Assembly: GCA_045537295.1 (NCBI GenBank)
Contig: JAZSPG010000070.1
Coordinates: forward strand, 34,955-98,954
Source of the DNA: Candidatus Scatosoma sp.
GTDB lineage: Bacteria > Bacillota > Clostridia > Christensenellales > Borkfalkiaceae
Direction of reading: 5' to 3'
DNA length: 64,000 nucleotides
Part shown: in pieces, positions 59,860 to 63,076 of the stretch
How positions within the stretch are numbered: position 1 is the first letter of the stretch
Layout: every line of letters starts with the position of its first letter
Translations under genes and position numbers: made by a program
The notes under the pieces: generated by a model
What the model saw: only the letters and a program-made list of their open reading frames with translations
Told to the model about the DNA's origin: nothing
Databases searched by the model: none

Positions 59860-59888
59860 TTGACAAGCAAACAGTGCAGGCGTATAAT
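59860..59888 (+). promoter_or_regulatory. Consensus sigma-A promoter of the sipW-type operon
   Basis: TTGACA-N17-TATAAT. Confidence 0.75.
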
Positions 59889-59923
59889 AAAACTACAAAT
59901 TTAATACCTTGGAGGGTAAATTT

Positions 59924-60685
59924 ATGAAAAAAATGGGAATTTTGGCAAGTTTGGCTTTGAGTGTAACCATTGGCGGTGTATACGCGGCGTGGTTATACGC
60001 GGATAAAAAGGTAGATACGTCCTATGCAACAATGGGTGTAAGCGTTACGGGTGTTACGAGTACTTTGGAAAAAGGTACTTTGGGTGCGGTAGGCTCAAAC
60101 GTTGCCATACAAATCGACGACGTTGACAACGATAAGCAACATATCACCGAATTTGTTGTGAATCAAGACGGTTATTTCACCATTACGTTTACTGCGAATG
60201 CGAACGCTCCGGTAGAGGTTTTGAAGAGCGGTATTGATTTGAATTGGTATATAGGTTTGGCTTTGACGACAACGGAAACGCCTACGCCTACTGAGGATAC
60301 CGCAGTTACGTTTAACGACGGAACAGACAAGGGGGAAAGACAGATTTTCGATATTGATGAGGAAGCTGTACAAATCAACAAAATGATTGGCCTTGCCGAA
60401 TTGCCTGAGGGTGTAACGAAAGAAGATATTAAAAATGACGACGAATTCGTTGGTGTAAAATACTTAAAAGACGGTGTCGTTATTGAAAGTAGAGAAGAAA
60501 AGGCAAACGGTACGGTTGTCTTTACTTATCGCGTAGAAATTGAAGACGTTATGAACAAAATTACGTTGACGGAAATGTTGTTGGATACCAAAGATAAGCA
60601 CGACAGATATTCCGCGATTGTATCTCAATACGCTTTCCATTTCCACGTAGCGGAAGGTATTGTTCCCTCGGTTGTAAACGAATAA
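59924..60685 (+). CDS. Secreted protein with SipW-type signal peptide (substrate 1, 253 aa)
   Basis: MKKMGILASLALSVTIGGVYAAWLYADKKVD, with GGAGGG RBS. Its N-terminus is paralogous to substrate 2 only. I recognise no family. Confidence 0.6.
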   Translation: MKKMGILASLALSVTIGGVYAAWLYADKKVDTSYATMGVSVTGVTSTLEKGTLGAVGSNVAIQIDDVDNDKQHITEFVVNQDGYFTITFTANANAPVEVLKSGIDLNWYIGLALTTTETPTPTEDTAVTFNDGTDKGERQIFDIDEEAVQINKMIGLAELPEGVTKEDIKNDDEFVGVKYLKDGVVIESREEKANGTVVFTYRVEIEDVMNKITLTEMLLDTKDKHDRYSAIVSQYAFHFHVAEGIVPSVVNE

Positions 60686-60717
60686 AAATAAACAAATAAT
60701 TTTACGTATAAATGAAA

Positions 60718-60747
60718 CTTTATCCCATAAGCAATTATGGGATAAAG
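60718..60747 (+). promoter_or_regulatory. Perfect 12-bp intra-operon hairpin
   Basis: ctttatcccata-agcaat-tatgggataaag between substrate 1 and the peptidase. No U-tract follows. Confidence 0.6.
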
Positions 60748-60753
60748 GCGTTT

Positions 60754-61710
60754 ATGCTAAATAGAGGCGTTGTTTTGTCTGATTACGAAATATACGGGCT
60801 TGTGCTTTGCTTAATCGTCTTTACTATATTTACCGTCTTGTTTACGGTAATGCTCGTGACGATTTTGAACACGACGGTAAAATTGATTCGAAGTGGAGCG
60901 GAAGACGAAGCGATTAAAATTGAATATAAAAAGTCTTTAAGACGAAAGAGAAGCGGGATACTCGGAAAAATCATATCGGCGGTATTCTGCATTTTCCTTT
61001 GTCTTTTTTGCGCGTTTTCCGTCTTGGTAAATATCTTTGGTGACAATTTTGCGTTGAACGTGCCGACGATTAGCGTCGTTAGAAGTGGTTCTATGGCGGA
61101 AAAGCACGAAAAAAACAAATATTTGGTGGAAAACGGATTAGATAATCAACTGCAAACATTCGACCTTATCGTTACGGAAAATCTTCCCGACGAATTTGAT
61201 TTACAGCTTTACGATATCGTCGTATACGAAGTGGACGGCTCGTTAATCGTGCACCGTATCGTAATGATAGAAGAACCCAACGACAAACACCCTAACGAAC
61301 GGCATTTCCTTTTGCAAGGCGACGCGGTTGAAAATCCCGACCGTTTCCCCGTGCGGTATTCGCAAATGAGAGGTATTTATAAAGGGCAACGTATACCGTT
61401 TATCGGTAGTATCGTAACCTTTTTGCAATCGCCTGCGGGGTATTTGTGTATTATTTTGATTTTATTTTCTTTGTTTGCTACGCCGTCTATGGATAAGAAA
61501 ATCGAAAAGGAAAAGGCAAAAAGACTTGCGATTATTTTAGGGCAAGGAAAGTGTGGCGTACAGCAAAAAGTAAAGGATACGCCGAATACGTCGCAACCGA
61601 AGTGGGGACCGCCTATATACTTATATCCCGTATTTTACGACCCGAATACGCTTCATTTAGGGCAAGCTATGCAACCTACTCCACCCAAGAGAGGAGGGGA
61701 TAAGAAATGA
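60754..61710 (+). CDS. sipW: SipW-like (ER/archaeal type, S26B) signal peptidase I with extra N- and C-terminal regions
   Basis: Motifs VVRSGSMAEK (Ser), LIVHRIV (His) and LLQGDAVENPD. ATG 60754 lies after the hairpin (the ORF-track start 60712 is inside the hairpin). Confidence 0.75.
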   Translation: MLNRGVVLSDYEIYGLVLCLIVFTIFTVLFTVMLVTILNTTVKLIRSGAEDEAIKIEYKKSLRRKRSGILGKIISAVFCIFLCLFCAFSVLVNIFGDNFALNVPTISVVRSGSMAEKHEKNKYLVENGLDNQLQTFDLIVTENLPDEFDLQLYDIVVYEVDGSLIVHRIVMIEEPNDKHPNERHFLLQGDAVENPDRFPVRYSQMRGIYKGQRIPFIGSIVTFLQSPAGYLCIILILFSLFATPSMDKKIEKEKAKRLAIILGQGKCGVQQKVKDTPNTSQPKWGPPIYLYPVFYDPNTLHLGQAMQPTPPKRGGDKK

Positions 61711-62528
61711 AACTGTTTGCTAAATTAGCGATTGCCGTTTCTGCGATTGTTTCCCTGTTTTCCGTGGCGGGCGTTATGGCGACTTGGGCGTATGCGGATA
61801 AAACGGTGGACGACGAGCAAGTCAGCCTTGGCGTAACGGTAAACGGTTTCGTGTATACGCCCCCTGAAATGCCTCCCGTGGAAGTTACCGCCGTTCAGCG
61901 TTTGTCGGATATATTAAACGGGAAGTATACCACGGACAAAGTAACCGATTCGTTGGATTATTTGTTAAACGAAACGATACAGGTATACTGGAATAACGAC
62001 CCCACGCAAGACCCGTTCGTCGGCAGTATGGATAATACGTATAGGGACGAAGTGGAAGCGTTGTTTGGGGACGTTTTAGAGAAACAGGACGAAAAAGTTG
62101 CGTTTATCTTAAAAAATCAAGATTTGAACGGCGACGGACATAGAGAAATTGCAATGTATTCCACGTCCGACCCGTTGGATAATACTACAAGCGATTATAA
62201 AGGCGTCGTATGCGTGTACGTTACGGTGTTTACGCCGATTGTCGACCGTTTGGGCAACGTTACGGGATATAAACAGGTTTGCGAATCGTTGCGCGGATAT
62301 TGTTACGAAATTTATTATTCGCCTAGCAATCACGAACCGTCGTTCTCCACAGACGAATGGAGAGATAGCGTTGCGTATACGAGCTGGGGTAAGGATACCG
62401 AATTGCCTGACGACGACAAGGATGACTTTGATTCTTACAATTTGCAGTATAATCCGACTTGGCTTAGTACGAATTATACCAAGCCTTACGGAAAAACGTT
62501 ATCTACTGTTTTGAAAGGACAATTTTAA
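61707..62528 (+). CDS. Secreted protein with SipW-type signal peptide (substrate 2, 273 aa)
   Basis: MKLFAKLAIAVSAIVSLFSVAGVMATWAYADKTVD. ATGA overlap with the peptidase stop. Confidence 0.6.
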   Translation: MKLFAKLAIAVSAIVSLFSVAGVMATWAYADKTVDDEQVSLGVTVNGFVYTPPEMPPVEVTAVQRLSDILNGKYTTDKVTDSLDYLLNETIQVYWNNDPTQDPFVGSMDNTYRDEVEALFGDVLEKQDEKVAFILKNQDLNGDGHREIAMYSTSDPLDNTTSDYKGVVCVYVTVFTPIVDRLGNVTGYKQVCESLRGYCYEIYYSPSNHEPSFSTDEWRDSVAYTSWGKDTELPDDDKDDFDSYNLQYNPTWLSTNYTKPYGKTLSTVLKGQF

Positions 62529-62533
62529 CGATA

Positions 62534-62570
62534 GTTCGCGCGCCCGTTTAAGCGGGCGCGCGAACGATTT
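62534..62570 (+). terminator. GC-rich 13-bp hairpin after the sipW-type operon
   Basis: gttcgcgcgcccg-tttaag-cgggcgcgcgaac. The T-run is weak. Confidence 0.65.
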
Positions 62571-62599
62571 AACAATCTATAACTATGACGGTATAGTAT

Positions 62600-62625
62600 A
62601 AAACGCCCTGTATTTAGGGCGTTTT
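62600..62625. terminator. Bidirectional terminator before the convergent regulator
   Basis: aaaacgccct-N6-agggcgtttt. Confidence 0.75.
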
Positions 62626-62629
62626 TCGT

Positions 62630-63076
62630 TTAAGCATCCGTTCTGCCGAGAAGATAATCCACCGAACAATCCAAGGCGTTTGCAAGCCTGATAAGATTGT
62701 CTGCATACGGCGAAGTAACGCCGTTTAGCCATTTGTTAAAATTATCGTAGGAAAAATTCGTTTTATGGTGCAAAGCGTATTGTGAAATTTTATAAGAGTT
62801 TAACAAATACCCAAACCGCTCGCAAAAGGGCGGAGCTTTTTTATAATGGAAATCGCTTTGCGGGTATTCGCTCAGCCCCAGCAAAAAATCCGCCGAACAA
62901 TGAAAATATTCGACAAGCTTTATGAAATTTTCAAAAGTCGGCGCACGCTCGCCTTTCAAATAACGGTAAAGCGTAGACGGCTTTACGCCTAACGCTTTCG
63001 CAAGGGCGGTAGGCTTGATTTGGCGTTCAAATATAAGTTCTTTTAATCTTTCTGGTAGTTTCGACAAAATATCCAT
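62630..63076 (-). CDS. Tandem-HTH XRE-family regulator (148 aa)
   Basis: Two Cro/C1 HTH units, each ending in the typical motif (ADFLLGLSE and VDYLLGRTD). AAAGGTGA RBS. Confidence 0.8.
   Translation of the reverse strand: MDILSKLPERLKELIFERQIKPTALAKALGVKPSTLYRYLKGERAPTFENFIKLVEYFHCSADFLLGLSEYPQSDFHYKKAPPFCERFGYLLNSYKISQYALHHKTNFSYDNFNKWLNGVTSPYADNLIRLANALDCSVDYLLGRTDA

Follow-up and report, generated by a model that had tools for sequence, protein, structure and literature searches.

What would a member of the Clostridia do with a signal peptidase of the endoplasmic reticulum (ER) type that is encoded between two secreted proteins of no recognisable family? The question is raised by positions 59860-63076 of a stretch of 64,000 nucleotides (nt), hereafter the window, from Candidatus Scatosoma sp. 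(GTDB lineage Bacteria; Bacillota; Clostridia; Christensenellales; Borkfalkiaceae; assembly GCA_045537295.1, contig JAZSPG010000070.1, positions 34,955-98,954 of the forward strand), where one promoter precedes three genes in the order gene 1 (253 amino acids, aa), an S26B-like peptidase (318 aa) and gene 3 (273 aa). To our knowledge, dedicated ER-type signal peptidases in bacteria come almost only from the TasA/BsaA biofilm systems. The operon described here is probably a self-contained secretion and processing unit, made up of a dedicated peptidase and its cognate substrates, with gene 1 encoding the subunit of a fibre, matrix or surface layer and gene 3 encoding a partner of that subunit. 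A first-pass annotation made from the letters alone had proposed such an analogue of the tapA-sipW-tasA module of Bacillus subtilis, and its sequence-level statements (promoter, genes, motifs, overlap, regulator and terminators) were all reproduced. The proposal itself is borne out by an S26B peptidase lying between two otherwise unrelated substrates with a common junction and by the presence of the cassette in many genomes, but the W-x-Y-A-D-K motif and the sinR-like regulator on which it also leaned did not hold as described. The features that carry the argument are the following, with ↓ marking a cleavage site.

59924..60685, plus strand: gene 1, a secreted beta-rich protein of 253 aa (predicted mature form 232 aa, isoelectric point 4.4, no Cys)
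59924..59986, plus strand: gene 1 signal peptide, MKKMGILASLALSVTIGGVYA, predicted cleavage after Ala21
59972..59998, plus strand: junction motif of gene 1, GGVYA↓AWLY
60754..61710, plus strand: divergent S26B (SipW/Sec11-like) signal peptidase, 318 aa
61084..61095, plus strand: Ser box SGSM, residues 111-114, with S113 as proposed nucleophile (numbered from the M at 60754)
61252..61263, plus strand: His box HRIV, with H167 as proposed general base, the ER/archaeal-type signature that replaces Lys
61315..61341, plus strand: Asp box QGDAVENPD, with D190 and D196
61707..62528, plus strand: gene 3, a secreted alpha+beta protein of 273 aa, with an ATGA overlap with the peptidase stop
61707..61781, plus strand: gene 3 signal peptide, MKLFAKLAIAVSAIVSLFSVAGVMA, predicted cleavage after Ala25
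61767..61793, plus strand: junction motif of gene 3, AGVMA↓TWAY

The longest open reading frame (ORF) for the peptidase spans 60712-61710 and encodes 332 aa. The most likely start is the ATG at 60754 and not 60712, because homologues begin at the equivalent position, because the 318-aa form is annotated for the contig while the protein collection has no 332-aa form, and because the first 14 codons of the longer ORF lie in a hairpin that pairs with the 60754 start region. In an alignment of 12 diverse homologues S111, S113, M114, H167, R168, I169, G189, D190, A191 and D196 are invariant, and the Ser/His ER-type motifs first read as SGSM, VHRIV and QGD are thus accompanied by an invariant Ser, His and Asp. 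The protein matches the NCBIfam SipW model (NF046067) with an expect value (E) of 1.6e-12 and 47.4 bits against a cut-off of 190, and the archaeal-type signal peptidase I model TIGR02228 with E 2.5e-10 and 40.5 bits against a cut-off of 51.85, the latter match covering model positions 6-149 of 158 and spanning the Ser box. Pfam S26 gave no match for the window peptidase, and 3 of the 12 homologues reach E 0.0045. Because the scores lie below the curated cut-offs and Pfam S26 is unmatched, the protein is assigned to a divergent S26B subfamily and not to the SipW equivalog. A phmmer search of the PDB returned no matches for the single sequence; the 12-homologue profile found SEC11C/SEC11A only (E 0.015-0.05, over the His box and the GD...D box), with the HRIV box aligned on the HRV box of SEC11A/C and the Asp box on SEC11 KGDNNxxDDR. 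With SEC11A/SEC11C and archaeal signal peptidase I the protein has in common the three catalytic boxes (Ser, His, Asp) and the sequence in which they come. The matches to SEC11 are very weak, however, and the bacterial protein consists of one polypeptide chain that has additional transmembrane (TM) helices, whereas SEC11 has accessory subunits of the signal peptidase complex (SPC). By these residues, the protein is a divergent but apparently catalytically intact S26B-like signal peptidase with predicted cleavage activity.

Hydropathy and charge predict a short N-terminus outside the cell, a first helix (TM1), a cytoplasmic loop of charge +5, a second helix (TM2) that directly precedes the Ser box, the catalytic domain, a third helix (TM3) and a tail of charge +8; by hydropathy and the positive-inside rule, the catalytic domain is predicted to face outside the cell. 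The loop carries the conserved motif LIRxGxEDExI (LIRSGAEDE in the window), and the C-terminal cytoplasmic tail is basic, rich in Pro and Tyr, and variable. SipW has about 190 aa. The peptidase had been called an oversized SipW-type enzyme, which is right in that it is some 130 aa longer than SipW, but it has 318 aa rather than 332 and is no SipW equivalog; the extra size lies in TM1 with the conserved loop, an insertion of ~17 residues after the Ser box, and the variable tail. At E<=0.001 the search for relatives returned more than 1,055 proteins from metagenome-assembled genomes (MAGs) of Clostridia, all of them unnamed or labelled 'hypothetical protein' and essentially none with a Pfam domain. 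Literature searches on SipW-like and Sec11-like peptidases in Clostridia and on TIGR04088 gave no description of this family. A P-type (SipS/LepB-like) peptidase was not found within the window with an approximate SipS query.

Some peptidase homologues carry further C-terminal sequence (fetched loci are given below by L numbers, individual peptidase homologues by P numbers). An extra cytoplasmic domain of ~100 aa matching uL15/L27A (PF00828, best E 4e-11) is present in L013:3859-4998, L014:3800-4984 and L017:3797-4993 and in P0256; an odd fusion for a signal peptidase, it might tether the enzyme to ribosomes or RNA. Other homologues reach 410-553 aa through long cytoplasmic tails (L024:1801-3408 (P0241), P0188, P0195, P0202, P0220 and P0223), none of which matched Pfam; in L024 the tail consists of a ~100-aa domain duplicated in tandem (KGKTLN.YV.L.P..Y..TKY.F.D...K.HKNYPMRV.ITS.R).

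The two proteins flanking the peptidase each bear an N-terminal Sec-type signal segment, as first described, and share at its end a junction motif that is the best-conserved part of both substrate families, in gene 1 together with the whole signal peptide. Among 96 relatives of gene 1, G18 is kept in 95, V19 in 93, Y20 in 95, A21 in all 96 and W23 in 95, with T (69) or A (17) directly after the Ala, and position 25 is Y in 83 and F in 13. In 72 gene 3 sequences the corresponding counts are G22 62, V23 64, A25 71, T26 49, W27 63 (F in 9) and Y29 57 (F in 14). The junction drawn in the first-pass annotation as W-x-Y-A-D-K is therefore real as a shared element, but its family-wide core is G-V-[YF]-A↓[TA]-W-x-[YF] and the ADK portion is lineage-specific. 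The strict motif occurs twice in a six-frame translation of the 64-kb window, both times ~20 residues into genes 1 and 3, and elsewhere in the fetched loci it is confined to the N-termini of gene 1-type and gene 3-type genes. Profile-profile comparison of gene 1 with gene 3 limits their similarity to the N-terminal 44-53 columns (probability 95-97%), in keeping with the earlier impression that nothing is shared past that segment, and gene 1 and the gene 3-like proteins of other cassettes have the N-terminal module alone in common (probability 94%). In both proteins the junction is followed by [TA]-W-x-[YF]-A, by ~10 polar residues and by an alternating hydrophobic strand.

The position of the cut can be placed by comparison with TasA. 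When the gene 1 profile was compared by hhalign with B. subtilis TasA (an approximate sequence, its N-terminus validated by a 107-bit TasA match), the signal peptide alone aligned, and GGVYA-TW was set on TasA GGTWA-AF in register with the known A27↓A28 site. The donor strand of mature TasA comprises residues 28-38, from which it follows that SipW cleaves TasA after Ala27, and TapA carries the same N-terminal donor-strand sequence (PMC9674648). Since the invariant Ala lies on TasA Ala27, the junction has Val at P3, an aromatic residue at P2, Ala at P1 and Trp at P2', with P3 Val and P1 Ala agreeing with the -3/-1 rule; cleavage is predicted after Ala21 in gene 1 and after Ala25 in gene 3. TasA, with aromatic residues at P2 (W26) and P2' (F), is a poor substrate for LepB and is cleaved by the dedicated archaeal-like SipW (PMC10269814). 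The models of SipW-dependent signals behave differently on the two systems: TIGR04088 and TIGR04089 gave no match at E<=10 for gene 1, gene 3 and two distant orthologues, while the TasA control scored 41.6 bits (cut-off 19), and the recognition of these N-termini by TIGR04088 that had been looked for was thus not found.

Past the shared segment, both substrates are as unrecognisable as first reported, with no full-length match to TasA, CalY, TapA or any Pfam, NCBIfam or PDB entry. The gene 1 protein begins MKKMGILASLALSVTIGGVYAAWLYADKK; a longer, TTG-started ORF was rejected as a listing artefact. Its homologues numbered 19 in a word-indexed search and 728 representatives at 50% clustering, as full-length matches, in an exhaustive profile search. 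Neither Pfam nor NCBIfam holds a family for gene 1 and no PDB sequence matches it; the 96 diverse relatives likewise have no Pfam family and no PDB match. Peptidase_M73 (PF12389), the TasA family, was not matched at E<=1 by gene 1 or gene 3, nor by any of the 96 relatives. The AlphaFold2 (AF2) model of gene 1 is beta-rich with a moderate predicted local distance difference test score (pLDDT 68.8) and leaves residues 1-36 unplaced, among them the mature N-terminus (residues 22-36). Foldseek of this model against the PDB gave a best E of 0.06 with TM-scores <0.2 and no TasA, AbpA or camelysin, a weaker test at a pLDDT of 69. The centre of the protein (residues 116-185) is hypervariable and rich in insertions and deletions, which suggests an exposed part such as is found in filament subunits, and gene 1 diverges much faster than its neighbours (identities in L007: gene 1 30%, peptidase 50%, gene 3 63%). 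Gene 1 also has weak, sub-threshold matches to the C-terminal domain of BclA and to a spike-fibre domain from phage, in both cases far below the cut-offs.

Other export and anchoring signals were considered as well. A lipoprotein signal was rejected: the family consensus has a Cys in the hydrophobic (h-) region, but position -1 is Leu and the window protein is without Cys. A type IV prepilin was also rejected, as the sequences lack G↓F-x-x-x-E and have their conserved motif where the hydrophobic segment ends on its outer side. On reading the sequences, no LPXTG or other C-terminal sorting signal was seen.

The gene 3 protein, which begins MKLFAKLAIAVSAIVSLFSVAGVMATWAYADKT, has 196 homologues, none of them named, and belongs to no Pfam or NCBIfam family; its family profile is without a PDB sequence match. 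Its AF2 model is very confident (pLDDT 90.8): a helix at the N-terminus is followed by a stretch of disorder (residues 36-45) and by an alpha+beta domain. The disordered segment (pLDDT <50) is homologous to the first beta-strand of gene 1, and in the model it fits a strand offered to another molecule, although this is no proof. Foldseek found no neighbour for the model in the PDB (best E 0.2) or among the viral structures of BFVD. The TasA/camelysin-like jelly-roll that the first-pass annotation suggested looking for was thus found by Foldseek against the PDB for neither substrate, and gene 3 is an alpha+beta protein without a known neighbour. Gene 3 further contains invariant or near-invariant polar residues, namely VGSMD (including S107), K136 and a D139-x-N-x-D143-G-x-x-E147 loop that resembles the calcium-binding DxDxDG loop; conserved positions fall at 105-109, 136-147, 169 and 192, and the protein has two near-invariant cysteines. 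On sequence conservation, these polar residues and cysteines suggest metal binding or catalysis.

The order gene 1, peptidase, gene 3 or gene 3-like is found in 14 distinct loci among those fetched, at several chromosomal sites. The MAGs that carry it derive from gut samples of animals and humans and bear the labels Candidatus Scatosoma, Clostridia, Eubacteriales or Christensenellaceae. In the lineage of the window the cassette lies between RecO-Mrr and PPDK, and elsewhere it adjoins the rplJ/rplL, secE and nusG genes or lies between spoIIGA-sigE and sigG. The gene downstream of the peptidase always belongs to the gene 3 superfamily: even the downstream genes of L022-L024 (240-314 aa), and a fourth gene in L012, are gene 3 homologues over ~200 columns (hhalign 98.7%, E 2.4e-16).

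Several loci depart from this arrangement. The fourth gene of L012 (L012:5753-6427, 224 aa) directly follows gene 3, has the same N-terminal motif (SVGGAFASWYYSQA) and is of the gene 3-like family; cassettes can therefore hold more than two substrates. At the RecO-Mrr...PPDK site of GCA_017463105.1, a MAG from roe deer caecum (L005/L006/L010, ~5886-6696), a chimera joins the gene 1 signal peptide to a gene 3 body. The site is syntenic with window 59924-62528, with the gene 1 body and the peptidase deleted, and the chimera has an apparent 1-nt frameshift at GGG before the motif, with GVYASWAFAEE in another frame; this looks like recombination between homologous 5' ends followed by decay, or like an assembly error. 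In one lineage a gene for a multi-pass membrane protein of the TMEM164 family (PF14808) stands directly upstream of gene 1 on the same strand (L001:3493-4326, L002:1546-2379); it was not seen in the other loci.

The cassette resembles tapA-sipW-tasA of B. subtilis in having a dedicated ER/archaeal-type S26B peptidase gene between two secreted substrates, in the character of the junction (small or beta-branched, aromatic, Ala↓small, aromatic: GGTWA↓AF in TasA and GGVYA↓[TA]W here), in an N-terminal segment that is the sole part common to both substrates (here by sequence profile) and, as proposed here, in the pairing of one major with one minor substrate. It differs in that its substrates have no detectable relation in sequence or fold to TasA (the Peptidase_M73 jelly-roll) or TapA, in its order of major subunit, peptidase and minor partner, in its longer peptidase, in the want of a conserved SinR-type regulator, and in leaving TIGR04088 unmatched. 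In the sipW-bsaA-bsaB-bsaC operon of Clostridium perfringens, matrix proteins polymerise via an N-terminal disordered segment, and cleavage has been proposed to be linked to assembly (PMC11580942). That operon likewise joins a SipW-type peptidase to secreted proteins in the Clostridia; however, BsaA and BsaB are remote TasA homologues accompanied by a von Willebrand factor A (vWA) protein, whereas here there is neither TasA homology nor a vWA gene. The archaeal bundling pili AbpA/AbpB combine a major subunit with an N-terminal donor strand and a TapA-like partner proposed to nucleate (PMC9245690). A major subunit paired with a partner is what we propose here too, but AbpA is a TasA-related jelly-roll processed by a generic signal peptidase, while the present cassette has its own peptidase and unrelated folds.

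The signals around the three genes bear on how much of each product is made.

59796..59822, plus strand: terminator-like hairpin and T-run 3' of the Mrr_cat gene, a 10-pair stem followed by TTTTTCATAA
59860..59888, plus strand: sigma-70 type promoter, TTGACA-N17-TATAAT, 12/12 consensus
60706..60757, plus strand: intergenic hairpin between gene 1 and the peptidase, with an inner stem at 60718-60747 and an outer stem that pairs with the peptidase start region
62534..62626, plus strand: two strong hairpins 3' of gene 3, a 14-bp GC stem and then a bidirectional A-run/stem/T-run terminator

The first of these is a terminator-like hairpin that would insulate the operon against upstream transcription. 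The promoter noted in the first reading is confirmed as a perfect match, and one of the same quality (12/12) stands 35-66 nt upstream of gene 1 in 9 of 15 loci, with 11/12 in 2 and 10/12 in the remaining 4; the ribosome-binding site of gene 1 is a GGAGG 7 nt upstream of the ATG. The hairpin between gene 1 and the peptidase folds at -25.9 kcal/mol (z score -7.7), and nearly all loci have a strong hairpin, often followed by a T-run, at the same position despite differing sequences. We propose that it serves as an attenuator or as an element stabilising the mRNA, with gene 1 expressed at a high and the peptidase and gene 3 at a low level. A core of CCCAU...AUGGG is common to the hairpins of the window (60718-60747), L011, L022, L024, L007, L009 and L013 and is retained where gene 1 is only ~30% identical, while the remaining loci have unrelated, equally strong hairpins; an Rfam search of the operon, including this hairpin, returned nothing relevant. 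In most loci the peptidase gene runs 4-35 nt into gene 3, and in the window the ATGA overlap reported earlier is present, by which gene 3 is predicted to be translationally coupled to the peptidase. The two terminators described between gene 3 and the regulator downstream are likewise there (-52.8 kcal/mol, z score -7.6).

Taken in order, the proposed mechanism would begin with very high transcription of gene 1 from the consensus vegetative promoter and with reduced expression of the coupled peptidase and gene 3 beyond the hairpin. The products of genes 1 and 3 would be exported via Sec with signal peptides ending in G-V-[YF]-A↓[TA]-W-x-[YF], a junction that, with aromatics at P2 and P2', should by analogy with TasA be a poor substrate for the housekeeping P-type signal peptidase. 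Because such a junction would resist the housekeeping enzyme, cleavage after the invariant Ala is assigned to the operon's own Ser/His membrane peptidase, with its catalytic domain turned outward. The cut would expose an N-terminus of [TA]-W-x-[YF]-A, the polar stretch of ~10 residues and the alternating hydrophobic strand. Through this segment, with its aromatics at P2' and P4', gene 1, the proposed abundant, surface-exposed major subunit, would self-associate into a fibre, matrix or surface layer. Gene 3, the proposed minor partner, would present the same segment on an unrelated globular domain and could, in the manner of TapA towards TasA, serve in sub-stoichiometric amounts as a nucleator, anchor or cap. 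The cleavage site, its dependence on the operon peptidase, the stoichiometry and the polymerisation are steps that we infer.

A number of observations weigh against this account. The peptidase scores under every curated family cut-off, the curated model of SipW-cognate signals fails to match the substrates, and the structure model of gene 1 is of moderate confidence (pLDDT 69). Foldseek found no fold of TasA, AbpA, a pilin or another fibre subunit for either protein, and the formation of a fibre or polymer is itself inferred. Co-variation of the N-termini within genomes gave p = 0.008 overall, a signal driven by the lineage of the window, and is not significant without that lineage (p = 0.15). 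Homologues of gene 3 occur without an adjacent peptidase in L016, L019 and L021, and gene 3 could be an enzyme, given its apparently compact, globular alpha+beta shape and the large number of its invariant polar residues.

The strongest alternative builds on these last points: the dedicated processing would be the same, but its products would form no polymer and would be ordinary secreted or surface proteins, for instance an adhesin or antigen together with an enzyme, the conserved N-terminus serving only for recognition by the peptidase or for retention in the membrane or cell wall. The lack of a detected fibre-like fold, the globular gene 3 with S107 in VGSMD, K136 and the D-x-N-x-DG loop, and the orphan copies of gene 3 without gene 1 are what it would lead one to expect, and we regard it as unlikely, though the main competitor. 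It accounts less well for conservation that extends to P4'/P5' and on into the hydrophobic strand, beyond the usual specificity of signal peptidases, and an abundant structural subunit would match the perfect promoter, the attenuating hairpin and the hypervariable middle of gene 1.

Two further explanations are less likely than the one without a polymer. In the first, the peptidase-like protein would not process its neighbours at all but would have another catalysis or substrate, while the N-termini common to both neighbours would remain uncleaved as signal anchors. This would be compatible with peptidase scores below the curated cut-offs and with the missing Pfam match, as well as with the AF2 model of gene 3, in which residues 2-31 form a single continuous helix through the proposed cleavage site. 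The invariance of the Ser, His and Asp boxes, the fit of P3 Val and P1 Ala to the -3/-1 rule, the register of the junction with the TasA site and the strict linkage of the peptidase to motif-bearing genes make it improbable. Least probable of all is a sporulation module whose SipW-like peptidase processes components of the spore surface or its appendages, for although the L022 cassette (L022:2566-7692) lies in the sporulation sigma-factor cluster between spoIIGA-sigE and sigG, by coincidence or as a hint of such a link, gene 1 has weak sub-threshold matches to BclA C-terminal and phage spike-fibre domains, and TasA was first found as a spore-associated protein (PMC9674648), most loci have a perfect vegetative sigma-70/sigma-A promoter consensus, other loci adjoin ribosomal-protein, PPDK or RecO genes, and the BclA and spike matches fall far short of the cut-offs.

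Downstream of the operon, and facing it, lies a regulator.

62630..63076, minus strand: XRE-family protein of 148 aa with two helix-turn-helix (HTH) units (HTH_3 E 8e-19, two stretches)

The two XRE HTH units and the convergent orientation reported for this gene are correct. Its comparison to sinR is unsupported, because the gene is no conserved neighbour of the cassette and neither a SinR/SinI domain nor a shared operator was found. Specifically, the gene is missing between gene 3 and PPDK in the closest relatives with a full cassette (L011 and L009), L009 having a 39%-identical XRE homologue beyond PPDK; L007 has a 94-aa protein with one HTH at the position, and no comparable XRE neighbour was found in the other loci. 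The protein gave no match to the SinR/SinI oligomerisation domain, and no operator-like sequence of >=10 nt is common to the operon promoter and the region upstream of the XRE gene. GC content is 42.4% for the cassette and 41.4% for the XRE gene, against 48.1% for the window, 51.6% for the flanking RecO and 49.2% for Mrr; the lower values are compatible with local acquisition of cassette and XRE gene, and regulation of one by the other is not thereby demonstrated. Upstream of the operon (window 58205-59776) lies a gene whose 523-aa product has at its C-terminus an Mrr_cat restriction-endonuclease domain (E 1.5e-11) and as its N-terminal half a long, low-complexity region, rich in K, E, P and A, that includes PVAPVAPVAP repeats; this gene is kept at the same position in relatives.

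As judged from its sequences, the cassette is a second lineage of dedicated S26B peptidases with cognate substrates, large and unannotated. At 90% identity its peptidases form more than 1,000 clusters, and at 50% identity gene 1 has more than 700 representatives, all of these 'hypothetical' or unnamed. A cognate signal motif of its own is shared by two families of substrates, of which the confidently modelled one (gene 3) is without a known structural neighbour. Its hosts are common in animal and human gut communities and are poorly cultured. Because of the perfect consensus promoter and the fast evolution of its sequence, the gene 1 product is probably among the most abundant and most exposed proteins of the cell, and may thus be relevant to colonisation, aggregation, phage recognition and host immunity. 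A bolder and tentative suggestion, which we regard as unlikely, is that uncultured gut Clostridia make an abundant, so far undescribed surface filament or matrix polymer from folds unrelated to TasA, pilins or flagellins, joined through the [TA]-W-x-[YF] strand, and that its assembly is coupled to cleavage by a new bacterial Sec11-like subfamily, in which extra TM helices would read the unusually conserved signal peptide and the cytoplasmic tails, some of them uL15-like, would link processing with the translating ribosome. The locus also allows a clear-cut comparison to test why a signal peptide should need an S26B peptidase, the answer suggested here being the aromatics at P2 and P2', and would be of relevance to research on secretion, biofilms and the gut microbiome.

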